A stretch of 20,241 nucleotides of DNA, taken from positions 1 through 20,241 of IMG/VR virus record IMGVR_UViG_2802429219_000017. The stretch is one strand, 5' to 3'. Both the position numbers and the translations under genes were made by a program. Each line of letters begins with the position of its first letter. Position 1 is the stretch's first letter. The notes beneath the pieces were generated by a model. That model made no database searches. It was not told the origin of the DNA and saw nothing but the letters and a program-made list of their open reading frames with translations. This document shows, in pieces, positions 413 to 17,739 of this stretch. Source of the stretch: a virus (Duplodnaviria > Heunggongvirae > Uroviricota > Caudoviricetes).

Positions 413-500
413 AACATTTTAGAGGATGATAAACGCGCTTTTTTTCTGACCACTTTACGCGCGGACTGGAAAACCTGGCGTCGTCATCTATTCTTAAAAG

Positions 501-603
501 GCAAGGCAACTAAGCCTGCATTAATGCCAACTTTTAGCGCACGGCTCTCTCCCAAGAGCCATTTCCCTGGACCGAATACAGGAATCGTATTCGGTCTCTT
601 TTT
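501..603 (+). ncRNA. sdsR: SdsR (RyeB) sigma-S-dependent small RNA
   Basis: Sequence GCAAGGCAACTAAGCCTGCATTAATGCC... ending in hairpin ACCGAATAC/GTATTCGGT (571-595) plus CTCTTTTT matches my memory of SdsR. A sigma-S-like -10 CTATTCT lies at 488-494, 7 nt upstream. Length ~103 nt fits. Confidence 0.6.
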
Positions 604-734
604 AATTGTATTTAAAATCAATTAGTTGCAAGCGCCTCCCCGAAATTCCCCGAAATTTACTCGAATTTCTGTATTCCGGTCTTTTTTGGTTATATCACAA
701 CCAATATACATTTAACAATCCATTTACGTAAAAA

Positions 735-1811
735 TCAGAGCAGTAAGTACGTTTTTTCTCTCTCATCAAGATACATTTTTGTTGTCTTCTCCGATGTGTG
801 GCCAAGTAGACGCTGAGCAAATTCTTCTCCACATGTTTCTTTGTATAATCGTCCAGCCAGGCTTCTGATCTCGTGAAAAGTTGGTGGGTTTTCACTGAAC
901 TGGATACCTGTTAATTTTCTGGCTGCAACAAATTTTTTTGTCAGGCCGTCCGGGTGAATGCTTCCGTCAGGGCTGTTTTTTCTAATCCCGGCACTGATTA
1001 GAAAATCTCCCCGGCTTACCAGGCGGCACCGTTCAACTACTGTACCAAGACGTAGACCAGCGACAGGAAGGCTGAGTGACAGGGGGATAGCAATCATCAT
1101 TCCTGTCTTAATTTGCCTGATGTGGAGACGATCATCATAAATATCACTGAACCGCATATTCGTTATGTCTTCGCGACGTTGTCCTGTTACAAGGGCTAAG
1201 TCCATAGCTAATGGGAACCATGTCGGAAGTTGATCTGCTGCCTCCCTGATGCAGTTGTATGTCTTTAGTTTCAGCCGTTCTCTTGTAACTACTATTTTCG
1301 GTGCTCTTGTTGGCGTTACTGGATTTTGAGATATACGCCCTTCAACAATGGCTTCGCGGAACATATCAGATAACACAGAACGCATTGATCCTGCCATCGT
1401 GTTTTTCCCTCCTTCAATCCACAAATCAAGAAACTCGGCAATATGGCGAGTGGTTATTTCTGTCAGTAAAATCCCTCCTAATTTTTCTTTTATTGTTTCC
1501 AGTTGATTTCCCCGAATTTTATAAGTATTTCTGGACACTTTTCTCCTTATAAGAATCGTTTTGTAACGTTCAATCCAGTCTGCCATAGTAAATGAGTCGA
1601 ACCCTTTAAGTTTTTCAATTAAGGCAGCAGGAGAGTAGTTTTTGTATATATAATGATTTGCTTCAATTGCCTGCGCGATTGCATCTCTTCTTGAAATTTT
1701 ACCTAGTGTAAATTCTTCTTTCGTCAGAGGGTTGCGCCAGTAATATGCTTTGTCCCTCCTTCGATATGTTAAGTTCCTAGGCAAATTGGGATCGTATTTT
1801 TTCCGCTGCAT
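735..1811 (-). CDS. int: Phage tyrosine integrase, lambda Int family (358 aa)
   Basis: Translation aligns by eye with lambda Int along its length (N-terminal arm-binding region NLPRNLTYRRR, C-terminal ...PTFHEIRSLAGRLY...LLGH... catalytic region). Confidence 0.9.
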   Translation of the reverse strand: MQRKKYDPNLPRNLTYRRRDKAYYWRNPLTKEEFTLGKISRRDAIAQAIEANHYIYKNYSPAALIEKLKGFDSFTMADWIERYKTILIRRKVSRNTYKIRGNQLETIKEKLGGILLTEITTRHIAEFLDLWIEGGKNTMAGSMRSVLSDMFREAIVEGRISQNPVTPTRAPKIVVTRERLKLKTYNCIREAADQLPTWFPLAMDLALVTGQRREDITNMRFSDIYDDRLHIRQIKTGMMIAIPLSLSLPVAGLRLGTVVERCRLVSRGDFLISAGIRKNSPDGSIHPDGLTKKFVAARKLTGIQFSENPPTFHEIRSLAGRLYKETCGEEFAQRLLGHTSEKTTKMYLDEREKTYLLL

Positions 1812-2058
1812 GTTTTAACTTCTCCAGTAACGGACTGTCTCTCCCTTGTCGCCCATTAGGCTGATGGTGTGTTATATCGGTATCAACCTTATTTGGGTTG
1901 ATATAGAAAGCCTCCGGAACCACCCTGTAACTCCTCCCGTGTAGTTCAGGTGCAGGATAAATGTTTCCATTCCTTGCCCATCGTCTCAGCGTTGATATTG
2001 ATGGTGGGTTATCCGGATATCTGAGTTTTCCCCACGTTTTGAGTGTCACAAGATTCAT
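1777..2058 (-). CDS. xis: Excisionase (Xis-like), overlapping the int start
   Basis: Small basic ORF immediately upstream of and overlapping int. SD AAGAGGT favours the second ATG (MNLVTLKTWGKL...) at 2058; the first ATG is at 2064. Confidence 0.65.
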   Translation of the reverse strand: MNLVTLKTWGKLRYPDNPPSISTLRRWARNGNIYPAPELHGRSYRVVPEAFYINPNKVDTDITHHQPNGRQGRDSPLLEKLKHAAEKIRSQFA

Positions 2059-2164
2059 TGCCATACCTCTTACGATATGACCGCCAGTAAATATACAGAA
2101 TACTGGCGGACGTGATTGATTTTTAATAATCAGCTATGAAGTTATAATTTGGATATAATGCAAC

Positions 2165-2353
2165 TCACGAGGGCAGAAGTTTCTCGCAATTAAAATTTAT
2201 CAGCTTTACTTTCTGCTCTCTGGAAACGCCTGCTTCTTTTTTTCCCGAGAGCATTTTTTCGCATTCCGATTTGGTTAACTTTGTTTTTGAGTACCTTGTC
2301 CAGTTAGTAGGAGTGCCACCTTCCTTTTCAATAGTGGCGGTAACTTTATACAT
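2165..2353 (-). CDS. ydaC: YdaC-like small protein (Rac prophage family)
   Basis: MYKVTATIEKEGGTPTNWTRYSKTKLTKSECEKMLSGKK... resembles Rac YdaC. GGAGG lies 5 nt before the ATG at 2353; upstream in-frame starts at 2365 and 2425 are possible. Confidence 0.6.
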   Translation of the reverse strand: MYKVTATIEKEGGTPTNWTRYSKTKLTKSECEKMLSGKKEAGVSREQKVKLINFNCEKLLPS

Positions 2354-2540
2354 GAACACCTCCATTATTATTTCCAGTGGTTCGTTTATTCCATCGTTCG
2401 AGTGCTTCTTTTTCACTTCCACCATAGCCGGTTCGGGATTCGCATCCGTTACACTTCGCGCGGTAATATCCTGAAATGGCTTTCACCGTTACTGATGGGC
2501 AACCACAAAAAGGGCATGGTTTGACTTTTTCATACCGCAT
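2346..2540 (-). CDS. ralR: RalR / Lar restriction-alleviation protein, type I toxin (64 aa)
   Basis: MRYEKVKPCPFCGCPSVTVKAISGYYRAKCNGCESRTGYGGSEKEALERWNKRTTGNNNGGVHV is near-identical to my memory of Rac RalR. Purine-rich SD precedes the ATG at 2540; the ORF is open back to 2555. Confidence 0.8.
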   Translation of the reverse strand: MRYEKVKPCPFCGCPSVTVKAISGYYRAKCNGCESRTGYGGSEKEALERWNKRTTGNNNGGVHV

Positions 2541-2603
2541 TGTCTTTTCTCTCATATAATAAAATTTTGTGATGGCGGTGAGGCTACACCGCCAAAGTCA
2601 ATA

Positions 2604-3692
2604 TCAGGAGCCGATATATTCTGGTTTCATATCTGTCAGTGTCGTTTTATACGCCTCATATAATTCACCCAGATGTGGCCGGGCAGCATTCAGCGTATTT
2701 TCCAGAGCAGTAAATTTTTGTTCTGCATCTGGATCACCGGATGAAGGAAGGTCATTTATCATCTTCTCGATACTGGCAATAGCATTGAGACGGTGATGAC
2801 GCCGAACCACTTTTCCTTTAAGCTCGGCAAAGAATTCGCCGATCTGGTTTTTCTGATCCTCTATCTCTTGGCGTAATGCAGTGGTTTCCTCAGTCGTGGC
2901 CGCGCTTTCGACACGCTGCCGGAATTCATCAATCCACGCTTCGTCAATACGCTGTTCGATGGTTTCTGTTCGCTGCTCGCTTACCTCGCTATAATTCTGT
3001 ACCGGCACAGGATTGATGATTTTTTCCTGTGGCTCTTCCAGTTCGTCCGGGGTATACACGCCCAGGATGACGTCAGGACAATAAAGGCGAGCCCAGTATT
3101 TCAACGCCAGATAGGCGAGCTGTTGTTTCGGGTTTGAGGTCCATAAAGGAGAATTACGCGTAATCACGCTGGAAAGAAACACCGGTTCTCCCCAGGTAAT
3201 CTCACTTTCACCGCGAAGAACTGCACCAACTCGAACTGAGAGACCATACTCATCTTCACTGGTCCAACATGGGATCGTTTCTTTTTTCTCATAGATTCCG
3301 CCTCCTTTGGCCGTTTTCTTAACGGTCTCCACTCGGGTGCGAGAGCATTTCTCCCAGTCTCCCTCGTACTTGTAATGGAAGCGGCCTACAATTGCACTTG
3401 AGCTAGAGATCACAGCGTTAACCAGTTGTGCTTCATAACCCAGAACTCCGTTTACCAGGTGTGTTTTCTGAGCCACAGCGTAGGGGTTCATGCCCCATTG
3501 CATGGCTTGCATGATGATTGCCATGCAGTCGGCAGGCTTTCCGCGAAGGTGATCGGGAACTGTGACGGTGGCCTGTGACATCAACCCGGCTACTTCCTGA
3601 AGTTGCGTCAACGCCTGAACGTTAAAAATAGTGTTACTGGCAGAAATGGTATTTGGTGTCTGCTCTGTCGTGATGATATTGGTATTTTGCAT
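2604..3692 (-). CDS. Single-strand annealing recombinase in the RecT position (divergent from K-12 RecT)
   Basis: Sits immediately downstream of recE with overlapping stop/start. GGAGAA SD favours the ATG at 3692 (MQNTNIIT...); the ORF is open to 3707. The RecT-family call rests on position and general resemblance only. Confidence 0.65.
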   Translation of the reverse strand: MQNTNIITTEQTPNTISASNTIFNVQALTQLQEVAGLMSQATVTVPDHLRGKPADCMAIIMQAMQWGMNPYAVAQKTHLVNGVLGYEAQLVNAVISSSSAIVGRFHYKYEGDWEKCSRTRVETVKKTAKGGGIYEKKETIPCWTSEDEYGLSVRVGAVLRGESEITWGEPVFLSSVITRNSPLWTSNPKQQLAYLALKYWARLYCPDVILGVYTPDELEEPQEKIINPVPVQNYSEVSEQRTETIEQRIDEAWIDEFRQRVESAATTEETTALRQEIEDQKNQIGEFFAELKGKVVRRHHRLNAIASIEKMINDLPSSGDPDAEQKFTALENTLNAARPHLGELYEAYKTTLTDMKPEYIGS

Positions 3693-3706
3693 GGTCAGGT
3701 TCTCCA

Positions 3707-6700
3707 TTAAGCCAGATGCAGTGCTTCAAGACGACGAAGATCAAAGTCGTTTAATTCGTCGGTATAACTTTCGGTTATCGGTGCTGGCCAATTGTTTGTC
3801 TCCAGGGCTTCGTTTATCTGGCGTAGCGTCCGGCGATATTCCTGTCGACCAAGTTCCAGGAGTTCCTGCGAGGCTTCCACGACAGCCACCCAGTGATAGC
3901 CAGCATCTTTGTTGACGAAGATCCAGAAAAATTTGTCCAGGTTTGCCACATCGCAATACATTGCGGCGCTGAGGTGATAATCACGCTCAATAATTTCACG
4001 GTGCAGGCGATCTTTAAGTCGTTCCTGCCGCACATAACCGAGGCTGACTGACTTCACGTCAGCGCAAATGCTTTCGTATGGCAGCCGGATTTCGATATCA
4101 GGACGGACCCTGATTTCCAGCCCGGTTTCTTCATCAAACCCGAAATAGCTGATTTCAGATTTGCGATCCGGGTGGTTGAGTAGCCTTGCTGCATCGGTAT
4201 TGTTTTGCAGTGCCGCGTGAATATTTTTTGCCTGTTCATACATATCCGGACTGATAAACGTTTTCCCGGCGTTTTCTTCTTGCTGGCGTTTTTGCCAGTC
4301 CTCCAGTGTCACCAGTTCCGGGCGAATTTTCCGTGCGATTTCGGTTAATTGCTCTTTTGTGCCACTGATGTTGTAAGGCAAAGATTTAGCACGTTCTTTT
4401 TTTGCCAGTTCTGGGTCTACAGTTTCAATTTGATCCAGAAGCTGCTCCCGTGCTCCACTGGTTTTCAACAGAGGAGGGAGGCTTGCGTTGTATTCTTTAA
4501 TACAGGCTTTCATTGCTGATGCTGTATGTTTTTCCCCCTCAGGAATACGCCGAAATTCCACCGGAAGCGAACCGTAAAGGATGCCTGTTTCTTCGGCCCC
4601 AGCACTTACAGACAGTGGCTGTATAAGAGTGCTGTTGTAGCTTTCGATCCACTCTTTCATCTGCTCTGGTGTCATCAGTGCTGGCAGACTGGCATTGTGT
4701 TTTTTAATGATGGCGATCAGTTCGTTAGAAGTAGTAACCACATATTCAGGAACCGGTACCGGAATGGCATATTCATCAGCGAATTTATCCGTTTCCAGAA
4801 CATAGCTGTGAATGATCCGCCCACGCAGCAGTGCATCACTTTCCTCGTTCGGAATAGTTCCGGCAATGTGCCGCCCGTGGTAATACATCAGGCTGATACG
4901 GGCATCCTTCAGCATCGTGCTGCTTATTCCGTTGGCGGAGTGATAAACCTCGTTCGGGAGGTTTTCATAGCGGCCTGGCTCGAAATATGACGGCCACATG
5001 ATTTCAGTTGCTACAGGAGCTGACGCTTCACCAGTTTCATCACTGCAATCACGATGCGGATCGCTGCCAGCATTCTCATTGTGCGGATGTTCAGCGCCTT
5101 CCATTTCCACCGGATCTTTTTCCTTAGCTTCAACCTGATTCTCTTCATCGAATGTTTCCTGGTATGTTGCGTCGCCCATTACCGCACCACAGTCAGGGCA
5201 GTTATCCCCGTCAGTCTGACCGCAGGCGGCGCAGACTTTTTCCGGTTCCTGTTGCGCTTCTGGTTCATTTTGTCGCGCATTTTGGCCGTTTTGTTCCGAT
5301 TTTCGGTCGTTCTGTTCCGTTTTTGGCTGATGCTGGTACACAGAATCGCGGGTCTGGATCCCCTTAACCCATTTCGGATCATTCGGGTCGCTAATCCCTT
5401 CAACAAATTCTCCGCGATAGGCAGCCAGTAATTTGTCTGCATCGACAGGATTTTTGGGCGGAATGTTTTTCCGGGCTTCATGGAGTTCTGCCCGCAGTTC
5501 TTGATATTTCGCATCAACAGAATTTACCTGTGACTGAGCATCCAGCGGCTGCGTGTCCTGATGATGTTCAGTTGCGTCCGGTTCCATTGTTTCAGCCTCT
5601 CCCTGTTCATCTGCCGTTGTTCCAGATGGTTGCGGTTTTTCTTCATCATCCTGTTTTCCTTCTTCTGTTACACGCTGCGGCATCGGGGCAGAGGAACGAC
5701 CGCAGGCAATATCCACGATTTCCGGATCAGGGTTGGCATGATCAGTTTCAGTCAGTACTTTGTTCAGATATTCAGTGACGTGCGCGGGGGTGACCTCGAT
5801 CCCAATTGGTGCTTCTTTCACGGACGCAACCACGATGGCGCGGGAATAATCCAGCCCGCCAGGCATGGTGATGAATTTGTCGCGGAAAACAGAAAAGGGC
5901 GGTTTATTTTCAGCGATAATTTCCTCAATGCGTTTAGCGTGTGCCGGATGAAGGTTATAAATGTCCACGTCCATTGAACGGGCCAGTACGCCAGTGGCTA
6001 CGTCGCGCGCCAGCGACGTCAGATCGTGGACGAAACCTTCGCCGCGATCGGTGAGGTTCCCGCCGCCAGCATTAGCACCGGAAGCCATGCGCGTGATGCG
6101 TGAAACACGATTCCCTTTTCGCCATTCTTTTGTCAGAAGACCGCGATCAATGTGTTCGGTATCCAGCCAGGCTGAAATGAAATTCTTAAATTCATAGGGC
6201 TGATGTTTTTTCGTGATAGAGAAAACCCCCTTAATTGCATCAGTCAGGCGGAGCAGGGCGGCATTATCCAGAGTTGTCGGTTCTGCCATGCCGCGTATGG
6301 CCAACAGCAGATTCTGGACATAGCTGTTTTCCTGATCCATCTCAAGAGCAGTAATGTGTTCGCGTTGTTCTCGGGTGGCATGATGCAGGTATTTCCGATC
6401 CCCGGCCGCATAGGTAAAAATGTGCAGAAGACGCTGTGTGAACCGCAAAGTGGCTACAGAGACTTCGCAATCCTGGCAATCCTCGTGGGCGTCTGCCTGC
6501 GTGTTTTCTTCCTGGCCTCCCGCCAGTTCTTTGGTTTCTTGAGCATTATCCTGGTGGTGAACGTCGTCTGGCGCTGCTCCCGGTTTTAGTTCCCAGGTCA
6601 TGGAGTCTTTGCTGAGTTGATAGCGTTCACTCCAGGTAAAATCGATCTCACCTTCAGGGGGCAGGTCATTAACGACAGGAAAATTCGTGGCAACAGCTTT

Positions 6701-6853
6701 AAAATAGCTGCTCAGTTTTTTACCTGACTTAACGATCAGGTAGTCCAGAGTGGCACAGGTCGATTCAAAATCGTCGCTTGCCCACAGGACGACGTCAGGT
6801 TCACCGGATGATTTTTTCGCTTTCCGTAACAGGAAGAGTGGTTTTGTGCTCAT
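3707..6853 (-). CDS. recE: Exodeoxyribonuclease VIII (RecE-like), 1048 aa, with a divergent C-terminal PD-(D/E)XK nuclease domain
   Basis: N-terminal ~590 aa closely match my memory of Rac RecE, including the CxxC...CPDC zinc motif. The C-terminal region has a RecE/YqaJ-like YH..GIS motif and a PD...(D/E)xK core (RPDIEI...ADVKS) but carries a large insertion with three related repeats. Confidence 0.85.
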
Positions 6854-6923
6854 TGTTTTTTAACCTCAACTCAGATTAAAATTACTGCGAGTGATGAATA
6901 AATGTCCCAGGTTCTTCACTCAG

Positions 6924-6952
6924 GCCTGCACGTTGTGCAGGCTTTCTTTTTT
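6924..6952 (+). terminator. Plus-strand rho-independent terminator between recE and racC, antisense to the leftward operon
   Basis: GCCTGCAC-GTT-GTGCAGGC stem-loop (6924-6942) followed by TTTCTTTTTT (6943-6952). On the minus strand the run is A-rich, so it does not terminate the operon. Confidence 0.5.
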
Positions 6953-7227
6953 CAGATTTCACCTTTTAATTTAATTGCAATCAGAGTTGCCAGAAATCCG
7001 GCTTTTTTTTCTACGGGCAGATTCTTTCCGATGTGAACCAGACTCATTTTTGTGACACCTTCATCAAGTGTTTTTACGTTGCCTGATGGGCCGTCAATAT
7101 CAACCACAGTGAATGGGGTTTCTTTATTTTCTGTTTTAATCACGTAGCCAATACGCTTTCCTTCCAGATTAACCTCGTGAACAATGTCATCGGTAGTTAC
7201 AACAGTGACTTCATAATTGGTAATCAT
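6952..7227 (-). CDS. racC: RacC (91 aa)
   Basis: MITNYEVTVVTTDDIVHEVNLEGKRIGYVIKTENKETPFTVVDIDGPSGNVKTL... is near-identical to my memory of Rac RacC. Confidence 0.85.
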   Translation of the reverse strand: MITNYEVTVVTTDDIVHEVNLEGKRIGYVIKTENKETPFTVVDIDGPSGNVKTLDEGVTKMSLVHIGKNLPVEKKAGFLATLIAIKLKGEI

Positions 7228-7300
7228 TTTTTCTCCTTAATTAAGGTTGAGCGAATCCCTGCCATTGCTGGCATAAATTCAGTTTCGCATAGTCAGTTAA

Positions 7301-7471
7301 TTAAAGTTCGTGTGCCATCTGGTCTTTTTCGGCACATATTTCACTACAATATTTTTTCATTTCCGTCGTTGGGATAACTCCACGCATGAAATGAAGTGGT
7401 TTTGTAATGCTTTTGCTTTTTTCAACTTCTTTATTGCAAAGGTGGTAAGCACATTTTATTTTCTTAGTCAT
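7301..7471 (-). CDS. ydaE: YdaE-like small zinc-binding protein (56 aa)
   Basis: Hand-translated from the minus strand (below the ORF-track size cutoff): [56 protein letters not shown]. Start overlaps the kilR stop (ATGGTGATGA). Cys pairs at both ends. Position matches Rac ydaE. Confidence 0.6.
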   Translation of the reverse strand: MTKKIKCAYHLCNKEVEKSKSITKPLHFMRGVIPTTEMKKYCSEICAEKDQMAHEL

Positions 7472-7692
7472 CACCATGACTCCGCCTTTACAGGTAAACC
7501 ATCACGACCGAGGAAGACTTTAATCATGCAGTCAGTAATGCATGTTTTTGTGGTCAGGTTACGAATATAAAGTTTTCGCTTTTTGATATTGTTTGCCGAG
7601 GCGATATATGTCCGACCTTCATGAAGAACATAATCGCCAGGGGTCACACACTGACGTGGTATTTCATCAGTTCCGAAGTGATGAGCAATCAT
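7471..7692 (-). CDS. kilR: KilR cell-division inhibitor (73 aa)
   Basis: [49 protein letters not shown]... matches my memory of Rac KilR. GGAG SD lies 6 nt before the ATG at 7692. Confidence 0.85.
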
Positions 7693-7858
7693 AATTATCT
7701 CCATTTTTACAAATGAATTTTGTCGATGCGGTGCCTGGTGCCTCCAGGTGACGTTAACCAGTTAACAATTAACGCCGGAGTATTTCACCCATAACTCTTA
7801 CGCTTTTAACTGTTCCGCGTGCGCTGAGCCGCATTCACCGCATCACAAAATTCACTTT

Positions 7859-7916
7859 AAAAAGGACGGACATCAGCCAGCAATGAAACTGATGCCGCCA
7901 AAAGGTAATCAACATG
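7859..7916 (-). ncRNA. Candidate DicF-like sRNA 3' module: minus-strand hairpin plus U-run upstream of kilR
   Basis: Minus strand reads ...UUUUGGCGGCAUCAGUUUCAUUGCUGGCUGAUGUCCGUCCUUUUU: an ~11-bp stem with two bulges followed by U5. It occupies the dicF position (immediately before the division inhibitor, in a dicA/dicC-controlled operon). Resemblance to DicF is from imperfect memory. Confidence 0.35.
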
Positions 7917-8149
7917 GGTTGTTGCAGCGGGGTTGTCACTCAAGCGTATGGTCAACCTGACAACCCGGTGCTCCACAGGGGGAGGGAGAATAGCACCCCT
8001 GCCATACTTACCGCCGCGCCATTTCGCGGATTGCCACAACCGGAAGCGCACGGTCGAAGAAATTTAACGACAAGCCTTCTAAGGGAAAAACATCACCTCC
8101 GTGCGCTTTCGTGTTGTGCGCCTGTCTTTTTTTACCACTTCAGGCTCGG

Positions 8150-8158
8150 TGGTATACT
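8150..8158 (+). promoter_or_regulatory. Extended -10 promoter element (TGgTATACT) for the downstream zinc-ribbon gene
   Basis: TG-n-TATACT at 8150-8158, about 33 nt upstream of the ATG at 8191, preceded by a T-run at 8124-8131. The -35 is weak. Confidence 0.4.
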
Positions 8159-8190
8159 GGAGTTCTCACACAACCAGTAAGGAATTTAGT

Positions 8191-8469
8191 ATGGTAATTA
8201 CTTCACTCTGCCCTGTTTGTTTGGCTACATCTTCTGTGCAGACTTTAGTTGAAGGGCAGCGCGAGTTTTTGAAAATTTATCATTGTCCAAATCATGGTAG
8301 TTTTGCCGTTCTTCCTGACCTTGATGTGAAATTGCAAGCAATGAGGTGTTCATCGGGTTATAAGATTGAACATTCGGAAGAGGCTATCAGGCTCGATGCA
8401 CGCTTACGTGAAAGCATACGCCCAGTAGATGGTCCTCAGTCGAAAATTCCAGTATTCCGCTCTGTCTAG
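8191..8469 (+). CDS. Small zinc-ribbon protein (92 aa), function unknown, in the sieB slot
   Basis: ORF MVITSLCPVCLATSSVQ...HCPNHGSF... with AAGGAA SD 6 nt upstream. CPxC...CPNH motif. Convergent to the leftward operon, the orientation of sieB in Rac. Confidence 0.6.
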   Translation: MVITSLCPVCLATSSVQTLVEGQREFLKIYHCPNHGSFAVLPDLDVKLQAMRCSSGYKIEHSEEAIRLDARLRESIRPVDGPQSKIPVFRSV

Positions 8470-8500
8470 TTTTCCCCTGACTGGCACCTTGTGGTGCCGG

Positions 8501-8800
8501 TCACATCTCCTCGATCATCGCATTTACTACGATTCGCAGATCTTCCAGTGCACTTTCAACTTTTAGATCATTTGCAGCTTCACTGACTTTTTTCATGGCA
8601 TCAGCCATTCTTTTAATCAGATCATTTGGAGTCTCTTTTGTGTTAGCAGAAACCCTGCTGGCCAGTTCCAGTGCGAGACGTGCATCTTTCGGTGTAATGC
8701 CTTTATCTTTTGCCATCTCTGCTGCCAGCTCAGAAAGCTCGGATGCAAGAGTGAGTACGCTTCTTCCCGTTTTTGACGGATATATATCGTGCGTGAACAT
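8501..8800 (-). CDS. First gene of the leftward early operon: 99-aa helical protein (YdfA/YdaF-YdaG-like position)
   Basis: ORF with AAGGAA SD, directly downstream of a sigma-70 promoter and operator-like palindromes. Acidic, helical composition. Homology to Qin YdfA/YdfB or Rac YdaF/YdaG is inferred from position only. Confidence 0.6.
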   Translation of the reverse strand: MFTHDIYPSKTGRSVLTLASELSELAAEMAKDKGITPKDARLALELASRVSANTKETPNDLIKRMADAMKKVSEAANDLKVESALEDLRIVVNAMIEEM

Positions 8801-8875
8801 TGTTTTCCTTTTCCCCTTAACGCCGGGTGGCAGAACTGTTTGCTGAGAACACCGTGCGGTGTCTTGATGGATTGT

Positions 8876-8904
8876 AATTTAGTTTTCTCATGAAAATTGG
8901 TCAA
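8876..8904 (-). promoter_or_regulatory. pL-like leftward early promoter (-35 TTGACC, 17-nt spacer, -10 TAAATT)
   Basis: On the minus strand: TTGACC (8899-8904), 17-nt spacer, TAAATT (8876-8881). An operator-like palindrome lies 10 bp upstream of the -35. Confidence 0.55.
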
Positions 8905-8913
8905 GCGTTTTTG

Positions 8914-8927
8914 GTGAGAAAACTCAA
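8914..8927. promoter_or_regulatory. Operator-like site OL (GTGAGAAAACTCAA), near-identical to the palindrome at OR
   Basis: 13/14 match to TTGAGAAAACTCAA at 9448-9461; the two copies flank the repressor gene. Confidence 0.55.
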
Positions 8928-8989
8928 TATTTAATGCAAAATAAAGCCAATACATTGAAATGTAAGGCTTTAAAATTTGTGAAGGGGGG

Positions 8990-9397
8990 TTATTGATGTT
9001 TGTTACGTTTGCGAGCTTCTAGTAGCTCGGTGAATAGGCGATTAAAATTCTCAACGCGGGCACGGAGTTCGCTGATTTGTGCTTGCTGCTCTGATTTTGG
9101 AAGTGCGCGATACAATCGCAACATCTCCAACTCATCTTCCGATAAGTCTAAGGCGCTGTTGAGTGCAACTGGTGGATCTGGTGTTTTATCCTCGTCACCA
9201 AACAGTATCCAAGTTGGTGAACATTGCAATACCTCAGCCAGGCGATGCAAATTTTGCCCGCGCGGGGCTGTATGGTCGCTTTCCCATAGTGAAATTGATG
9301 AGCCAGATACGCCAGCAGCTTTGCTTAAATCGTTTTGACTTAAACCAACCTGTTTGCGTCTTTCTCTAATTCGTTGACCTAAAGTTTTCTCGTTCAT
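8990..9397 (-). CDS. dicA: Prophage repressor, DicA-type XRE-family HTH protein (135 aa, no peptidase domain)
   Basis: HTH region LGQRIRERRKQVGLSQNDLSKAAGVS... and the ...LQCSPTWILFGDEDK... segment match my memory of Qin DicA, which is also 135 aa. Confidence 0.8.
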   Translation of the reverse strand: MNEKTLGQRIRERRKQVGLSQNDLSKAAGVSGSSISLWESDHTAPRGQNLHRLAEVLQCSPTWILFGDEDKTPDPPVALNSALDLSEDELEMLRLYRALPKSEQQAQISELRARVENFNRLFTELLEARKRNKHQ

Positions 9398-9418
9398 ATT
9401 TAGATATCTTAATAACCC

Positions 9419-9448
9419 TTGACTTGAGATTCCTTGAGTGATTACTAT
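9419..9448 (+). promoter_or_regulatory. PR-like rightward early promoter (-35 TTGACT, -10 TACTAT) with TTGAG repeats
   Basis: TTGACT at 9419-9424, 17-18 nt spacer, TTACTA/TACTAT at 9442-9448. Direct TTGAG repeats sit in the spacer. Confidence 0.5.
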
Positions 9449-9461
9449 TGAGAAAACTCAA
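9448..9461. promoter_or_regulatory. Operator OR: perfect 14-bp palindrome TTGAGAAAACTCAA at the PR start site
   Basis: Perfect inverted repeat immediately downstream of the PR -10, just upstream of the cro-like SD. Confidence 0.6.
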
Positions 9462-9474
9462 CTTTGGAGGGGTG

Positions 9475-9702
9475 ATGTTTAAATCAGACGTAATTAATTT
9501 TTATGGGACGAAAGCCAAAGTAGCGAAAGCTGCTGGTGTTGATCCATCCGCTGTTTCTCAATGGGGGGAACTGGTTCCTGAAGGTCGCGCGATGCGCCTG
9601 CAAGAGGCATCCGGCGGGGAACTTCAGTATGACCCCAAAGTTTATGACGAATATCGTAAGGCAAAGCGGGCGGGGAAGGTGATTCATGAAAATCAGGCAT
9701 GA
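9475..9702 (+). CDS. dicC: Cro-like regulator, DicC-type (75 aa)
   Basis: MFKSDVINFYGTKAKVAKAAGVDPSAVSQWGELVPEGRAMRLQEASGGELQYDPKVYDEYRK... resembles DicC. GGAGGGG SD precedes the ATG at 9475; the track ORF begins with TTG at 9448. Confidence 0.7.
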   Translation: MFKSDVINFYGTKAKVAKAAGVDPSAVSQWGELVPEGRAMRLQEASGGELQYDPKVYDEYRKAKRAGKVIHENQA

Positions 9703-10111
9703 GCACATCGAATCAGTGCTGTTAGCCCTGGCAGCCGAAAAAGGGCAGGCGTGGGTCGCTAACGCAATTACTGAAGAATATCTGCGCCAGGGGGGGGGCG
9801 GCGAATTACCCCTGGTACCAGGCAAGGACTGGAACAATCAGCAGAATATCTATCACCGCTGGTTGAAAGGTGAAACGGAAGCGCAAAGGGAAAAAATTCA
9901 GAAACTGATCCCTGCAATTCTGGCAATCCTTCCGCGCGAGCTGCGCCACCGATTCAGCATCTTCGATACCCTGGAACGCCGTGCATTACTGGCGGCGCAG
10001 GAAGCGTTGAGTACGGCAATTGATGCGCATGATGATGCAGTCCAAGCCGTTTACCGGAAAGCGCATTTCAGCGGTGGTGGGTCGTCCGACGATTCTGCTG
10101 TTGTTCATTAA
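9686..10111 (+). CDS. ydaT: YdaT (CII-like fold), 141 aa
   Basis: MKIRHEHIESVLLALAAEKGQAWVANAITEEYLRQGGGG... is near-identical to my memory of Rac YdaT. AAGGTGA SD; overlaps the cro-like stop. Confidence 0.85.
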   Translation: MKIRHEHIESVLLALAAEKGQAWVANAITEEYLRQGGGGELPLVPGKDWNNQQNIYHRWLKGETEAQREKIQKLIPAILAILPRELRHRFSIFDTLERRALLAAQEALSTAIDAHDDAVQAVYRKAHFSGGGSSDDSAVVH

Positions 10112-10130
10112 GTGAATAGGGTAACTAACA

Positions 10131-10544
10131 ATGAAAATCAAACCGTTTATCAATGCTGGAAATCTTACTCCCGGCGAACTACGAGACTGGATCCTGAAAC
10201 TTGCAAAAAATGCAGAAATTGCGGGTTGGGGTACAGAAACTTCGGTTCGGAAGCTTCAGAGCGCAGAACTTAGCCTGCGCTCAGTTATGGACGATTTATC
10301 CCCAAGAATTAATTTTCTGGGGTCAGAGCAAATAATTCGTTCGGAAGGTCACTCCAGCGAAGTTGCGGAAGTTCTGAATACTTTGAGGATAACTTTTGCT
10401 GCCGTTCGCGATATTCAACGAACCATTCTCTCATTGATTTCTCAGCTTCAAGAAATTGATAGTCGCATTCCTGATGGGGGTCATAGAGAGCGTCTTCCAG
10501 AATGTGAAGAGCAAGGACAGGAGAAACAGATAAGGGATCAGTAA
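10131..10544 (+). CDS. Hypothetical protein (137 aa) directly after ydaT; overlaps a convergent ORF
   Basis: Open frame starting 19 nt after the ydaT stop, with protein-like helical composition and a weak SD. Its 3' 236 nt overlap the minus-strand ORF 10309-10764. Confidence 0.4.
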   Translation: MKIKPFINAGNLTPGELRDWILKLAKNAEIAGWGTETSVRKLQSAELSLRSVMDDLSPRINFLGSEQIIRSEGHSSEVAEVLNTLRITFAAVRDIQRTILSLISQLQEIDSRIPDGGHRERLPECEEQGQEKQIRDQ

Positions 10545-10764
10545 TACGTTTTTCACTTGCCTGGTATAGCAATCTCGCCAGCGAATCATAGTTACTGGGA
10601 CTCAGGAGAGAATCTCGTGAGTGATTTGTAAGAAGTAGATGGAAGCGGGTGAGAACTATAGCCCTGCATGTTACCAGGTTAACCATGTCGTGGTCGTGCT
10701 GGTTAATTTTGTACACAGTGCGCATGTGATTTTTAATTTTTTGGCAAACAGCCATTAAAGACAT
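10309..10764 (-). CDS. Hypothetical protein (151 aa) with its own -10 and strong SD, divergent from the replication gene
   Basis: AAGGAGGT SD 5 nt before the ATG at 10764. Perfect minus-strand -10 TATAAT at 10804-10809, ~33 nt upstream of the ATG. No recognisable family. Confidence 0.5.
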   Translation of the reverse strand: MSLMAVCQKIKNHMRTVYKINQHDHDMVNLVTCRAIVLTRFHLLLTNHSRDSLLSPSNYDSLARLLYQASEKRITDPLSVSPVLALHILEDALYDPHQECDYQFLEAEKSMREWFVEYRERQQKLSSKYSELPQLRWSDLPNELFALTPEN

Positions 10765-10843
10765 GTCGAACCTCCTTTGGTTCTGTTGATTGGGGAATCA
10801 CAGATTATATCCGGAGGAAGGTTCGACACCAGATGAGGCAATT

Positions 10844-11968
10844 ATGGTTAAGGCTAAAAACATGCCAAATCCCATGCCAAAAACTAAGGCAAACAATGAG
10901 CCTTATCGCAAGGTAAAAATAACGATATGGGATGATCCCAAATTTAGGGCGTTATCTCCTCTGCCTCCAAGTGGACAGAGTTTGTTTATTTATCTGCTGA
11001 CCAGTCCATTTACCGGGATTATTCCTGGGTTGTTTAAAGCCGGGCGGGCAGCAATGGCTGAAGAGTTGGGGTGGGATATCGAAGCCTTTGACTTAGCCTT
11101 AGGCGAAGCCATGAATCTTGGCATGGTGAAAGCAGATATCAAAGCCAGAGTTTTTTGGCTCCCGAATGCTGCGAAACACAATCCGCCAAACTCGATAAAT
11201 GTCATTAAATCCTGGGCAAAGGCATTCGCTTTAATTCCTGACTGCCCTCTCAAATGGGAGGCCAGGGAATCGCTGAGAGCCGCGTCCTACGGGGTTTCTG
11301 AGGCTTTGGGGATGGCATTCGATAAGGCAATCCCTTTGCCTGAGGATAAGCCTAAGGATAAGGCTAACGCTTTGTCATGCGGTATCCAGATAACAGATAA
11401 CAGATATATAAACCCCACACATAACGCGCGCGTGCGCGAGAGTGCTCCGGCCAGTGAGGCAAATGGCGTGCCGTTGCAGACAGCGGAACCTGATTACCTG
11501 GAAGGCCTGAGCGAACCCATCGGGAAATTTCCGATGACCGATGGCTGGCATCCGTCGCCGGATTTTCGACGACGGGCTGCGCTGTGGGGCGTGGCTCTTC
11601 CTGAGCCGGAATTTACACCAGCTGAACTTGCCGCCTTCCGGGACTACTGGGCAGCGGAGGGGAAAGTATTTACGCAGATTCAGTGGGAGCAGAAATTCGC
11701 CCGTCACGTAAATCACGTCAGGGCGCAGGTTAAACCAGTCAGCAAGGGGGTGAGCCATGCAGCCGCACCAGGTGGCACCGCATCACGGGCAGTTCAGGAA
11801 ATTCGGGCAGCACGTGAGCAGTGGGAACGTGAAAACGGATTTATCAGCGACGGAAACGGCGTGGAAGCTGTGGGAACTCATGGGGGAGGTTTATTCGAAC
11901 CGCTGGACCCAGAAGAACGGGGCCGCACCTTCGAAGCTCTGGATTGCACAGATTGGCGCGATGACTGA
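10844..11968 (+). CDS. Putative replication initiation protein (O-like slot; YdaU/DnaT-like C-terminal motif)
   Basis: Large ORF in the lambda O position. C-terminal ...[31 protein letters not shown]... resembles phage replication/primosomal proteins. GAGG SD favours the ATG at 10844; the track ORF starts with TTG at 10790. The last ~70 codons overlap the next gene. Confidence 0.6.
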
Positions 11969-12422
11969 GCAGCAAATCCGTCAGGTCTGCCGCCAGTGCA
12001 TGGACCGCTGCCGGGCGGGTGAAACATGGCCTCCGGACCTGGCTGAGTTTGTGGCGCTGATTTCGGAGAGTGGGGCAAATCCATTTGGTCTGACGGTGGA
12101 TGCTGTGATGGAGGAGTACCGCCGCTGGCGCAATGAGTCCTGGCGATACGACGGAAGTGATAAGTACCCGTGGTCTCAGCCCGTGCTGTATCACATTTGC
12201 CTCGAGATGCGTTCAAAGGGGATTGAGCGCCAGATGACCGAAGGGGAGTTAAAACGGCTTGCAGAACGGCAACTGACGAAATGGGCAAAGCATGTTGGTA
12301 ATGGCCTCAGTGTTCCGCCCGTCCGGCGGCAACTGGCAGCACCAAAACGCCCGTCGGGGCCAACACCAATTGAGTTGCTGAAACAGGAATATGAACGCCG
12401 GAAAGCGGCTGGTTTTGTTTGA
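11757..12422 (+). CDS. Lambda P-like replication protein (helicase loader)
   Basis: ...[36 protein letters not shown]...YPW... aligns by eye with the central and C-terminal parts of lambda P. AAGGGGGTGAG SD precedes the ATG at 11757; alternative starts at 11880 and 11961. Confidence 0.65.
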
Positions 12423-12455
12423 GTTTAGAAGTATTTTTACCGGGAGGAAATTTTA

Positions 12456-13211
12456 ATGGAGACCGTTTTTGACGCACTGAAAGCGATGGGAAAGGCCACG
12501 TCGGCAGAACTGGCTGCGCGACTTGATATCAGTCGAGAAGAAGTGCTGAACGAACTATGGGAACTGAAAAAGGCTGGTTTCGTTGATAAAAGCGCGTACA
12601 CCTGGCGTGTGGCTGATAACAACGTTCAGCAGGAACAGCCAGCGCCGGCAGAACTGCCGGAAGAAACCACCACGGCGACAGTAGCGAAAATCTCAGAGTG
12701 CGATTTAACCGCGACGATTGAACAACGCGGACCACAAACGGCGGATGAGCTGGCTACATTGTTTGGTACCACATCACGCAAAGTGGCTTCAACGCTGGCA
12801 ATGGCAATCAGCAAAGGTCGTCTGATTCGCGTAAATCAGGGCGGTAAATTTCGTTACTGCATACCGGGCGATAATTTACCAGCAGAGCCGAAAGCAGCAT
12901 CGGTAGCGGAAACTGATGGTAAGGCCTTTCCTCAGCCCGCAGGTGTTGCGTTACCAGTACAGGAGGCTGCAACACAGGAAGAAATTAAAACAGAAACTGT
13001 GGCGGACATTGTGCAGTCGCTGCCATCGTTTACTGCAACGCGATCTGATGATTTGATTTTGCCATCGCTGCATTTGGCAAACCGCGAACTGCGTCGGGCG
13101 AAAAATCATGTCCGGAAGTGGGAGCGTGTCTGCGCCGCGCTGCGGGAGCTGAATAAATATCGCGATATTGTCGCCCAGCTTTGCCAGGAGGAAACCAGTG
13201 AGCAACATTAA
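12456..13211 (+). CDS. Hypothetical protein with two winged-helix-like domains (251 aa)
   Basis: GGGAGGAAA SD. N-terminal and central segments each look like a winged helix-turn-helix; the C-terminus is basic and helical. Confidence 0.6.
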
Positions 13212-13812
13212 TTACCAGGCACTGCGAATGGCGGCAGAAAATGCAACCCCTGGCGAATGGTGTTCTGATGATTATGGGTTAATTGCTGATGCCGGACTGA
13301 ACGCAAATTACTACATAGCATCATGCTCAGGACCAGATAATCGCGCCAATAAGCGATTCATAGCAGCAGCCAATCCGGCTACCGTGCTGGCACTGCTGGA
13401 TGAACGGGAAGCCCAAAGCAAACGCATTGCAGAGCTGGAGACTAATCTTGCTGCACTTGCGGCGGAGAATGCGGGGCTGAAGGTGATGTGTGAGGACCGC
13501 CGCAGGTTCATCATGAAAGGGGTGCAACTGGGGTATATCAAGGTGCCAAAAGCGGAAACAGATCCGGACCTTGAGACAATTCGTATTGCTATATCACCAC
13601 AAAAGCCCATTCCAGCCACCGATGCTTTTTTGGCTGAAGTAAGGGCGCAGGGGGTAGAGATGATGCGCGAACACCCATCAATCAAACTTTGCTCTTTGAC
13701 GCACATATGTGATGAGTTAGCCGCCCAGCTTCGAAAAGGAGAGCTGCATATGATGTTTGACGCTGGCATTCACATCAAAGGAGAAGAGCATGGAAATAAA
13801 ACCAGAAGATGA
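13198..13812 (+). CDS. Ead/Ea22-like protein (N-terminal Ea22-like domain, variable C-terminus)
   Basis: AGGAGG SD 6 nt before GTG at 13198. ...[47 protein letters not shown]... resembles the Ea22-like N-terminal domain of lambdoid prophage proteins. Confidence 0.55.
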
Positions 13813-14149
13813 GTTAAGTAATATTGTTTTATTTCCGGTAAAAGAGGATGACCCACGTAATCAGGTTAATTTTCTTTATGAACCATCGGAAAGACCATAT
13901 TGCCATCATGCCTCTGTCCGGGTTGATGAAAAAGAGCGTCAGGTCCGCTGTAAAATCTGCGGTGCAGTTGTGGAGCCATTTGACTGGATGCTCTCTGTTG
14001 CGAAAAGAGAAACCAGGCTGGCAGATGATGTAAAACTATTGCGCCAGGAGGAACAGGAAAGGCGAAAAAATATAGAAAAGCTAATTCAGATTGAGCGTAA
14101 CGCGAAAGCGCGGATACGCAGAGCGACAAAATCCAGAACTGAATATTAA
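13790..14149 (+). CDS. Hypothetical zinc-ribbon plus coiled-coil protein (119 aa)
   Basis: AAAGGAGAAG SD. CHH...CKICG motif followed by a basic/acidic coiled-coil tail. Confidence 0.55.
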   Translation: MEIKPEDELSNIVLFPVKEDDPRNQVNFLYEPSERPYCHHASVRVDEKERQVRCKICGAVVEPFDWMLSVAKRETRLADDVKLLRQEEQERRKNIEKLIQIERNAKARIRRATKSRTEY

Positions 14150-14194
14150 ATCAGCACTGTAAATAAAATTTAATCCTTAACCGGAGGTATATCT

Positions 14195-14407
14195 ATGTTA
14201 AATACACAGAAAACCATTAACGCGGAAAAATATAACGAGTGGGTAAAAAAATTCTCTGAGCAGATTTTTAAAATTACTGCTGACGAGAATGTAGCAAAAA
14301 ATGAATTAGAGCCGTGGACACCTGAAGGAACCGACCCAAATTATTGCTGGTGGGAGGTTGATCCGGTTGATGCTGCAAATGAAGCCATGAGTTACCACAA
14401 CGATTAA
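14195..14407 (+). CDS. Hypothetical small protein (70 aa)
   Basis: GGAGGT SD 5 nt upstream; acidic, Trp-rich C-terminus. Confidence 0.5.
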   Translation: MLNTQKTINAEKYNEWVKKFSEQIFKITADENVAKNELEPWTPEGTDPNYCWWEVDPVDAANEAMSYHND

Positions 14408-14719
14408 TGTCGGGATGCCGCCCGAAAGGGCGGTAATAAAAATGGCTGAACTAATCGGAGAACAAAACGATGAAAAACCGTAAGGCAAAGATGCTGATAG
14501 CAAAGCCCGGGCAGCGTATCCGTATCTCAAATCGGCTTGTTATTTACTATAGATATCTGGGTTTTAGGGGGTGTTCCTCTATTCGTTTTTACGGTGTCTG
14601 GCGGAGCAGAAGCGCGGCGCAAAACCGCTGGAAAAACCACTTGCGCACTAAAGGAGAGTGAGGTGCCTACACTATTCAGGAAGCTACACAATAAAATTAA
14701 CCCACATAAGGAAACAGAT

Positions 14720-15298
14720 ATGGCAACTATTACCAGAGAAAGCGCAGAGATTAAATCATTCATCACTGGCTTTCTGAGCGATGCGGCGCACGATAACCAA
14801 TCTTCAAACAGTCTGCTTGCTAATGTGTTTCGTATCGCGCTGGCATCGCTGGAAGCAAAACCAATAGGTGCATTCCACATTGCAGAACAGCAAGTTGACG
14901 GTACAAGTGACTACCTCAAGGATGGAGAATGGCCTATTGATAATGGAATTATTGAGGTCTACGCCGCTCCCCCCGTTCCCGTAATACAGGCTGATGTCGC
15001 GCAAGCAATTGAAAATCTCAAGCAGAAGTTAGTGGAATGCAATCGCTATAACTACTGCGCAGATGCAGTTAAAGGTGTTGAGGATGCCTGCCGCGCAGCC
15101 ATGCTTCAGGGGAAAGACGATGGTATCCTCACCAATGAGGATACCAAAGGGGACGTTCAGGTACGGGAATTAACAATGCTGATTAAACAACTGGTTAGCC
15201 AATTGAGGAAAGCGAAGCCGGACTGCAAATTACCGGAGAAGGCGATGGTCTACCTGAAGCGAAACGGACTGATAAGTGCAGAGGATGTTTTGCGATGA
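14720..15298 (+). CDS. Hypothetical protein (192 aa)
   Basis: AAGGAAA SD before the ATG at 14720; the track ORF extends to 14537 but that N-terminal part looks non-coding. Soluble, acidic. Confidence 0.6.
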   Translation: MATITRESAEIKSFITGFLSDAAHDNQSSNSLLANVFRIALASLEAKPIGAFHIAEQQVDGTSDYLKDGEWPIDNGIIEVYAAPPVPVIQADVAQAIENLKQKLVECNRYNYCADAVKGVEDACRAAMLQGKDDGILTNEDTKGDVQVRELTMLIKQLVSQLRKAKPDCKLPEKAMVYLKRNGLISAEDVLR

Positions 15299-15378
15299 CC
15301 TGGCCTGAAGCATTCACAACGGTAGGAATTGCAATGGCGGTGGCGCTGGTGGTGTATTCGATTTGCCGCTGGGGATAA
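15295..15378 (+). CDS. Candidate 27-aa hydrophobic peptide, start overlapping the preceding stop
   Basis: Hand-translated: MTWPEAFTTVGIAMAVALVVYSICRWG; ATGA overlap with the 14720-15298 stop. One predicted transmembrane helix. Confidence 0.3.
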   Translation: MTWPEAFTTVGIAMAVALVVYSICRWG

Positions 15379-15588
15379 AAACGATTTGCGGGAAAAGGAT
15401 AGTTAAGTAGAATTGCTGCGGGTGCTTGAGGCTATCTGTCTCAGGCATGAACACCAAAGGCAGATAGAGAAAAGCCCCAGTTAACATTACGCGTCCTGCA
15501 AGACGCTTAACATTAATCTGAGGCCAATTTCATGCTAGACACATGTAGGTTAGCCTCTTACGCGCCGAAAGGCAAGGAGAAGCAGGCT

Positions 15589-15744
15589 ATGAAGCAGCAA
15601 AAGGCGATGTTAATCGCCCTGATCGTCATCTGTTTAACCGTCATAGTGACGGCACTGGTAACGAGGAAAGACCTCTGCGAGGTACGAATCCGAACCGGGC
15701 AGACGGAGGTCGCTGTCTTCACAGCTTACGAACCTGAGGAGTAA
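15589..15744 (+). CDS. hok: Hok/Gef-family type I toxin (HokD/RelF-like, 51 aa)
   Basis: MKQQKAMLIALIVICLTVIVTALVTRKDLCEVRIRTGQTEVAVFTAYEPEE matches my memory of the Hok family. AAGGAGAAG SD. An in-frame upstream ATG at 15532 gives a mok-like leader. Confidence 0.85.
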   Translation: MKQQKAMLIALIVICLTVIVTALVTRKDLCEVRIRTGQTEVAVFTAYEPEE

Positions 15745-15810
15745 GAGACCAGGCGGGGTAAACCCCCGCCACCTCTGATGTGTCAGGCATCCTCAATGCA
15801 CCCACACTTA

Positions 15811-15836
15811 ACCCGCTTCGGCGGGTTTTTGTTTTT
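15811..15836 (+). terminator. Rho-independent terminator of the hok transcript
   Basis: ACCCGC-TTCG-GCGGGT followed by TTTTGTTTTT. An upstream hairpin GGCGGGG-TAAA-CCCCCGCC (15752-15770) resembles a hok fold-back element. Confidence 0.7.
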
Positions 15837-15961
15837 ATTTTCAACGCGTTTGAAGTTTTGGATAGTGCCGGAATAGAATCAAAAATACTTAAGTAGCGCG
15901 CAGGGAGAAGAGGGATGGACCCCGAACAGGGGAGTGCTATTTATCTGGAAGGATTCTGTTG

Positions 15962-16222
15962 ATGAAAATCGAAGAATTGCGTGAAATTTTTAGTGAAAAT
16001 GGCCTCTATACTGTGCGCGTTGAGAATGGCGCTATTGTCAGTCACTGCCGTATTAAATGTTTACAGTCTCAACAAAGGAAGAGTGGAGCTGCGTTATTTT
16101 ATTTTTGTAATGGACTTCTGACGGACGGTTTTATTTTGCGTGAGGACGAATTTGTCACATCATTAGGGGTTTTGAAAGAGATTGGTTTTAAGGCTGGTTT
16201 TTCTGCTTTTGCTGAAGAATAA
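15962..16222 (+). CDS. Hypothetical small protein (86 aa)
   Basis: GGAAGGA SD 8 nt before the ATG at 15962. Confidence 0.5.
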   Translation: MKIEELREIFSENGLYTVRVENGAIVSHCRIKCLQSQQRKSGAALFYFCNGLLTDGFILREDEFVTSLGVLKEIGFKAGFSAFAEE

Positions 16223-16288
16223 ACTCATCTACAATCTTGAGCAGGATTGAACTCCTGCTGAGTAACACCGTGCCACCGGAGAAAGCCG

Positions 16289-16888
16289 ATGGCACATATA
16301 CAACTGGTCAAACAAACCTCTTCCGGATTACTTCTCCCGGCGACGCCGGAGAGTTGTGATTTTCTGCATCAAATCAAAATAGGCGAGTGGATACACGCTG
16401 ATTTTAAGCGCGTTCGTAACTACGCATTCCATAAGCGTTTTTTCAAACTTCTGCAACTCGGATTCGATTACTGGACTCCGGTCGGTGGGGCGATCACTCC
16501 TCGCGAACGAAAACTGGTGTCCGGTTTCGTTGATTATCTGTGTGAATCAGTAGGCCGGGAACATACGCCAGCTCTGAGCGAAGCCGCAGAGCAATATCTG
16601 AATACAGTTGCGACACGCAGAACCCGGGATACAGCATTGCTAAAGTCGTTTGAGGCTTTCCGCGAGTGGGTAACCATTCAGGCCGGATTTTACACCGAGC
16701 ATATTTATCCGGACGGTAGCCGTGGGCGCAGGGCGAAATCCATCTCGTTTGCGAATATGGACGAAACCGAGTTTCAGCAGGTTTATAAATCTGTGCTGAA
16801 TGTACTGTGGAACTGGATCCTGTTCCGTAAATTTTCCTCTCCGGAACAAGTCGAAAATGTGGCCGCGCAGCTACTGGAGTTTGCGTAA
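16289..16888 (+). CDS. nin-region hypothetical protein (199 aa; possibly DUF1367-type)
   Basis: GGAGAAAG SD; stop overlaps the next start (TAATG). Family name is from vague memory only. Confidence 0.6.
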   Translation: MAHIQLVKQTSSGLLLPATPESCDFLHQIKIGEWIHADFKRVRNYAFHKRFFKLLQLGFDYWTPVGGAITPRERKLVSGFVDYLCESVGREHTPALSEAAEQYLNTVATRRTRDTALLKSFEAFREWVTIQAGFYTEHIYPDGSRGRRAKSISFANMDETEFQQVYKSVLNVLWNWILFRKFSSPEQVENVAAQLLEFA

Positions 16889-17723: not shown

Positions 17724-17739
17724 AAACGAGTGAGACATA

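Follow-up and report, generated by a model that had tools for sequence, protein, structure and literature searches.

Between recE and racC of a Rac-type prophage, two genes that are both transcribed leftwards, lies a hairpin that has the form of a strong terminator for transcription in the opposite direction, which raises the question of what RNA it ends and what such an RNA might do there. We addressed this in a window of 20,241 nucleotides (IMG/VR record IMGVR_UViG_2802429219_000017; positions are those of the window), by comparison with homologous loci and with published transcript-end data for Escherichia coli K-12. Most likely, a small gene for a cis-antisense RNA ends at this terminator; the features on which this reading is built are collected in Table 1.

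Table 1. Positions, strands and supporting evidence of the features in the window.
Feature	Position	Strand	Basis or remark
SraC/RyeA	463-607	-	
SdsR/RyeB	504-603	+	
SdsR terminator	569-597		strict terminator criteria (see text)
Integrase	735-1811		
Leftward early operon: integrase, excisionase, DUF1187 protein, RecT, RecE, RacC homologue, YdaE, KilR-sized ORF		-	
RalA antitoxin sRNA	2169-2347	+	full-length match, 214 bits
recE (exodeoxyribonuclease VIII, 1048 aa)	3707-6853	-	Pfam Exonuc_VIII, E = 8e-68; annotation of the best-matching genome
Second promoter-like site, AGGAAA-17-TAAAAT	6677-6705	+	7.9 bits
recE start codon (6851-6853) and Shine-Dalgarno (SD) GAGG (6864-6867)	6851-6867	-	sequence
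Candidate sigma-70 promoter: -35 TTGTTT (6853-6858), 18-nt spacer, -10 TAAAAT (6877-6882)	6853-6882	+	weight matrix
Predicted pairing of recE SD with the block holding TAAAAT	6858-6884	-	mRNA fold
Predicted ~63-nt non-coding RNA	6889-6951	+	5' end predicted; 3' end by homology to the K-12 Term-seq end
Predicted 5' hairpin: GAGTGA (6889-6894) pairs with TCACTC (6916-6921)	6889-6921	+	folds
Terminator hairpin: 5' arm 6922-6931, loop 6932-6934, 3' arm 6935-6944	6922-6944	+	
T tract of terminator, TTTCTTTTTT	6943-6952	+	sequence; T-rich in all three allele families
racC homologue (91 aa), stop codon 6952-6954	6952-7227	-	neighbour of spacer and hairpin
STnc100	7685-7875	-	Rfam, sub-threshold, 39.5 bits
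DicF	7864-7914	-	Rfam, sub-threshold, 28.6 bits
sok antitoxin RNA	15420-15594	+	117 bits

The window contains a Rac-type lambdoid prophage whose leftward early operon lies entirely on the minus strand, with a CI-like repressor gene further to the right; a spacer of 98 nt separates recE from racC. The segment from 6600 to 7300 shares 99.9% identity with E. coli strain 190 and 92% with the K-12 Rac prophage, and is found in 1,845 of 5,426 complete E. coli genomes. The recE and recT genes are the basis of Rac RecET recombineering, and both are longer here than in K-12 (1048 vs 866 aa for recE, 367 vs 269 aa for the RecT ORF). A block inside recE is only ~50% identical to K-12; these differences in size and identity, at 6100-6560 and 2604-3707, reflect mosaic exchange within the recombination genes.

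The prophage carries several other small-RNA loci and differs from K-12 Rac in its site. SdsR/RyeB and SraC/RyeA form a bidirectional sRNA locus just to the left of the integrase gene, and the prophage thus adjoins this sRNA pair and yebY and not ttcA, the site of Rac in K-12. The host flank (1-720, the yebY region) is only ~92% identical to each of the 5,426 complete E. coli genomes while the prophage reaches 99.9%, and the host is probably a non-coli Escherichia. A full-length match to the antitoxin sRNA RalA lies inside the minus-strand early operon, sub-threshold Rfam matches to STnc100 and DicF are located 5' of the kilR-like ORF (together spanning 7685-7914), and the sRNA KilS is annotated upstream of kilR in K-12. 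The match to sok antitoxin RNA suggests that the right part of the prophage has a type I toxin-antitoxin locus of the hok/sok type.

The plus-strand hairpin reads AGGCCTGCAC-GTT-GTGCAGGCTT and is followed by TCTTTTTTCA. Its GC-rich stem consists of ten pairs, six of them G-C and one G.U, closed by a loop of 3 nt and adjoining a U-rich tract in the RNA, as in a Rho-independent terminator. The predicted fold has a free energy of -16 kcal/mol (z = -3.2), and none of 200 shuffled sequences was as stable. With strict criteria of our own making (a stem of at least 8 pairs with at least 5 G-C and at most one G.U, a loop of 3-8 nt, and at least 7 T in 10), just two sites are recovered from both strands of the whole window, compared with 0.02 ± 0.14 expected from dinucleotide shuffles, and the other is the terminator of SdsR. 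The stem, the T tract and this rarity confirm the claim of a preliminary description of the locus that a strong plus-strand terminator sits between the two minus-strand genes, and the coordinates it gave (6924-6952, in a spacer of 6854-6952) are correct to within 2 nt. The same description held that the hairpin could not terminate the operon itself, and this also stands for canonical termination: the minus strand 3' of the stem reads GAGUGAAG (also written GAGUGAAGAACC), and because a U tract is missing there the hairpin is no canonical intrinsic terminator of the racC-recE operon, in keeping with which recE rises together with racC on silencing of RacR.

Evidence that such a terminator is used comes from the homologous locus of K-12, which has a hairpin of different sequence at the matching place, TAGCCTGCG-CCATA-CGCAGGCTA followed by TTTCTTTCAG (6459-6483 of the K-12 locus, L003). 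The two alleles share the stem core GCCTGC...GCAGGC and are ~55-60% identical across the spacer, hairpin included. Mapping of plus-strand 3' ends by Term-seq had been proposed as a check of the terminator, and such an end is found, at the K-12 allele rather than that of the window: Adams et al. (2021), in their supplementary file 1, report a Term-seq 3' end on the plus strand at NC_000913.3 1417486, which they class as 'antisense' to racC and give with the K-12 sequence above (PMC7815308). This position falls within the U tract, 5 nt past the K-12 stem, and the racC stop codon follows 2 nt later.

The end at 1417486 occurs three times in the file, which covers three growth conditions, and two of the rows, in the portions used, score 185,664 and 146,140 (PMC7815308). 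Plus-strand scores in the two table parts compared are mostly 700-20,000, with 275,198 for the lpp terminator (taken from a different condition sheet than the racC-antisense end) and 10.8 million for a tRNA (PMC7815308), which places the racC-antisense end among the highest plus-strand values in those parts. We compared scores within the plus strand only, because the minus-strand scale is visibly and unexplainedly higher, the lowest values in parts 5 and 31 of the file being ~700 on the plus strand vs ~23,000 on the minus strand. In the portion of the same sheet that was available, no 3' end is listed for RalA, a known plus-strand sRNA of Rac. The location of the 3' end in the U tract shows the terminator to be functional in vivo in K-12 under prophage repression, and the high plus-strand scores in these parts of the table indicate that the RNA is abundant in this state. 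Hairpin and T tract together make up a working plus-strand intrinsic terminator, with use in vivo documented for the K-12 homologue and expected by homology for the allele in the window.

To place the two alleles in context, approximately 100 loci were compared, drawn from viral contigs and from genomes of Escherichia and Shigella. They contain 14 spacer variants that fall into three families: the K-12 type, the window (W) type, and L096. Of the 14 variants, 13 have an undamaged terminator stem, and changes within families are almost confined to its loop. At one stem position, the outer pair, the families have A-U (K-12), G.U (window) and G-C (L096), and because diversity is so low, with three families all from Escherichia or Shigella, covariation has little power. 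A search for more distant homologues found the RacC family confined to these two genera, with only the three spacer families.

The terminator loops differ by exact reverse complementation (CCATA/TATGG and ACT/AGT; window 6932-6934, L051-L054, L009 and L095), which is the signature of a template-switch inversion at a palindrome. We also considered whether co-resident prophage copies need different alleles and found no support for this, as the two genomes with two copies each have the W type in both.

These comparisons bear on the suggestion, made in the preliminary description, that the terminator is the remnant of a lost plus-strand gene. A functionless relic would account for a terminator oriented against every neighbouring gene, but it sits poorly with pairing that is maintained across three allele families, with an intact stem whose changes are mostly in the loop, with the high expression of the RNA, and with the lack of a conserved plus-strand ORF upstream, the short ORFs present being different in each allele. 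We regard this explanation as very improbable indeed.

The comparisons also address the strand on which the hairpin acts. It could function in the minus-strand mRNA, either protecting a processed or Rho-terminated 3' end of kilR-ydaE-racC or providing a processing site that uncouples recE, with plus-strand termination being incidental. The hairpin is ~10 nt after the racC stop codon and travels with racC, its minus-strand fold is predicted at -15.6 kcal/mol, and the stems of K-type variants are equally stable on both strands, all of which would suit such a role. In all eight W-type variants, however, the plus-strand fold is 5-7 kcal/mol more stable than that of the minus strand. Three G.U pairs in different variants (the W-type outer pair, a further inner pair in L096, and one through which L009 and L010 keep stem 1 of the predicted RNA) would each be an A.C mismatch in the minus-strand RNA and so favour the plus strand. 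The L025/28/30 variant shows the opposite bias at its loop-closing pair (plus-strand C.A against minus-strand U.G), and stem 1 of L096 contains a G.G mismatch. The plus-strand T tract is conserved in all three families and in K-12 is the site of a real 3' end, whereas the minus strand lacks a U tract and no minus-strand 3' end is listed between 1417400 and 1417499 in the Term-seq file, for which the operon was repressed. A primary role in the mRNA is thus improbable.

If the hairpin ends a plus-strand RNA, a second question is where that RNA begins. Scoring with our own approximate sigma-70 weight matrix gives the candidate promoter in Table 1 a score of 9.6 bits (rank 19 among the 202,090 combinations of site and spacer that the two strands of the window offer), and no plus-strand site in the 600 nt preceding the terminator scores better; it is 40 nt upstream of the hairpin. 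Its -35 hexamer matches the consensus only at TTG, and a stricter consensus scan makes no promoter call there. The site overlaps the recE start codon and flanks or overlaps the ribosome-binding site of that gene.

The block from the recE ATG to TAAAATT, which contains the candidate promoter, is invariant in the examined variants that keep the spacer, including L095 and L096, in which the 5' coding sequence of recE differs. This conservation is no proof of a promoter, since the block is also the 5' UTR of recE and the predicted partner of its SD: folding of the mRNA places the GAGG in a predicted helix with the UUUUAAUCU block, which contains TAAAAT. Such pairing could act as a weak translational brake on recE that is independent of any antisense RNA.

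An RNA from the candidate promoter would begin at about 6889 and end at ~6948-6951, just ahead of the racC stop codon. It is predicted to fold into two adjacent hairpins, a 5' hairpin and the terminator (-26.8 kcal/mol, z = -5.1), and the K-12 counterpart is predicted to have the same two-hairpin fold (-24.9 kcal/mol, z = -4.9), with an analogous CAGTG...CACTG stem in the 5' hairpin. Directly after the TAAAAT block, the identity of the W type with K-12 falls to ~55-60% over the body of the predicted RNA, with flanks at 94-100%, and the two-hairpin architecture is kept by both of these diverged alleles.

The preliminary description envisaged instead that a plus-strand RNA runs antisense across the recE start region. 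An RNA that starts inside the recE coding region would cover the recE SD and start codon and could block translation directly; the second promoter-like site in Table 1 would give a transcript of ~245 nt, the first 250 nt of recE are 98-100% identical to K-12, and the Term-seq 3' end is silent on where the RNA begins. Against this, the upstream site scores below that at 6853-6882, L095 and L096 keep the spacer cassette despite another type of recE 5' coding sequence, and the island of divergence sets in sharply right behind the TAAAAT block, which fits a start of the RNA body at that point. We consider a start within recE to be unlikely, although it retains a minority chance. Of the earlier proposal, the existence of an antisense plus-strand RNA is upheld by the end at the homologous K-12 hairpin; its extension across the recE start is the less likely course, the best candidate start being ~6889. 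As this position is downstream (on the plus strand) of both the recE start codon and the SD, the predicted RNA is antisense to the spacer only.

The distribution of the spacer provides further information about its association with the flanking genes. The spacer and hairpin form a cassette that travels with racC. In a Rac-like locus of E. coli GPT24-02 (L094, 1751-2071), a 98-aa gene annotated as 'DNA breaking-rejoining protein' takes the place of racC and the spacer; its stop codon is 23 nt from the recE start, and the hairpin is missing. In L095 and L096, with their different type of recE 5' coding sequence, the cassette is kept from the ATG onward, and from this arrangement the unit that travels together begins at the recE ATG and not inside recE.

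This linkage is relevant to the view that the terminator is an insulator against stray plus-strand transcription into racC-kilR, with the RNA a targetless by-product of which a stable hairpin fragment accumulates. Any upstream transcription can leave a stable hairpin end that accumulates; moreover, the RNA is missing among the Hfq partners in the tables as far as covered and among listed small-RNA candidates, and it has no trans complementarity in the prophage (see below). Such a view does not readily explain why the Term-seq score is so high for the plus strand in the table parts compared, why a diverged allele retains the 5' hairpin, which an insulator does not need, or why the cassette disappears along with racC instead of remaining upstream of recE. 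We think it quite unlikely that insulation is the whole explanation.

Other identities for the spacer were considered and set aside. A coding reading of the plus strand was rejected because the short frames are not the same in different alleles and continue across the terminator, and a REP or other repeated element was rejected because the hairpin, with a median of one copy in each genome, invariably accompanies racC. The minus strand of the spacer has no ORF of at least 30 aa, and its short reading frames are not common to the alleles; with no small toxin ORF opposite it in the spacer, the predicted RNA does not belong with the antitoxin RNAs of type I toxin-antitoxin systems.

The reading we prefer, and to which we give about an even chance of being correct in full, is that the hairpin ends a plus-strand cis-antisense RNA gene of ~60-63 nt contained wholly within the racC-recE spacer of Rac-type prophages. 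A sigma-70 promoter overlapping the recE ribosome-binding site would drive synthesis of the RNA at ~6889-6951, consisting of the 5' hairpin and the terminator hairpin, while the prophage is repressed. The RNA would be fully complementary to the leftward early transcript from the racC stop codon to ~20 nt upstream of the recE SD. A target mRNA exists, since silencing of RacR derepresses racC as well as recE, as published, and the predicted RNA therefore overlaps an expressed transcript of the opposite strand, with complementarity that is complete by construction. By pairing with leaky or newly induced racC-recE mRNA it would form a duplex of ~60 bp that is a substrate for RNase III, and transcription initiated at its promoter, head-on to the operon, may contribute as well, so that recE and the genes after it would be held down or delayed relative to racC. 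The 5' end, promoter and size are predictions, and the regulatory effect, a cis-antisense brake on recE, is proposed on the model of the phage precedents P22 sar and lambda OOP.

A more specific purpose can be imagined. RacC is reported to block, and RecE to trigger, a retron toxin system, and with such a blocker-trigger pair the ratio of racC to recE might be controlled. The abundant antisense RNA, its body a separate and fast-diverging module, would then uncouple the RacC blocker from the RecE trigger at the junction of the two genes, giving blocker without, or ahead of, trigger. We offer this as a doubtful extension with only a small chance of being right.

Searches of databases and of the literature locate the RNA only by its end. 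With permissive thresholds, Rfam 15 returns chance-level matches at the hairpin for the window and the K-12 allele (RefA5 for the window, E = 1.7), none of which reaches its gathering threshold. RefSeq NC_000913.3 annotates ralA and kilS and leaves this RNA unannotated. The Hfq RIL-seq tables of Bar et al. (2021), within the passages covered, have no entry for racC and none for recE, and thus no Hfq chimera of the kind that marks an Hfq-dependent trans-acting sRNA; complementarity to possible trans targets inside the prophage is limited to chance 9-12-mers. There is no entry at the spacer among the 229 small-RNA candidates of the Shinhara 2011 deep-sequencing list, and searches of the literature, including for the hairpin sequence itself, found no paper describing the RNA or a regulatory effect. 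What is already known is the 3' end, as a row in a published table; the RNA itself is unnamed and unstudied in the sources checked.

K-12 is the best-annotated bacterium, and yet this RNA end has no name there, even with a score which, in the table parts compared, is comparable to that of the lpp terminator (same strand, other condition sheet). If a constitutive antisense RNA does operate at the racC-recE junction, it would be a second silencing layer beside the RacR repressor and would offer a simple handle on how prophages stage the expression of risky genes. Should the RNA be merely a stable by-product, its identification would still be useful for annotation.

Several known RNAs provide points of comparison. 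The K-12 counterpart is one row (1417486, plus strand) among the unclassified antisense Term-seq 3' ends of Adams et al. (2021), where the RNA is neither discussed, named nor tested, and the term 'Rac prophage' is absent from the main text (PMC7815308). RalA (Rfam RF02694) is likewise a plus-strand small RNA within the minus-strand early-left operon of Rac, present both in the window and in K-12, and it targets the mRNA of the ralR toxin by means of a 16-nt complementary stretch (PMC4041452). It differs in being 179 nt long, included in Rfam and annotated, whereas the RNA described here is ~60 nt, unannotated and has no toxin partner.

The closest parallels in arrangement are found outside Rac. 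Like the predicted RNA, P22 sar is a small opposite-strand RNA in or at an intercistronic region of a phage operon, with its own promoter facing the operon promoter (a candidate promoter in the present case), and it acts in cis on the downstream gene, as we propose here. It is ~68-69 nt long and is encoded in the arc-ant region of phage P22. The two have no sequence relation, and sar covers the ant ribosome site while the predicted Rac RNA ends ~20 nt short of the recE SD. The OOP RNA of lambda, at 77 nt, is similarly a short, terminator-ended antisense RNA of a lambdoid phage; it differs in belonging to the cII-O region of the rightward operon and in overlapping a coding 3' end and not an intercistronic spacer, and there is no homology. 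Both sar and OOP are listed as examples of phage antisense control, and pairing of OOP with an early mRNA promotes RNase III-dependent decay of that message (PMC5415839). It is in kind, as a short RNA laid against an early phage transcript, that the one predicted here would resemble these known phage antisense RNAs.
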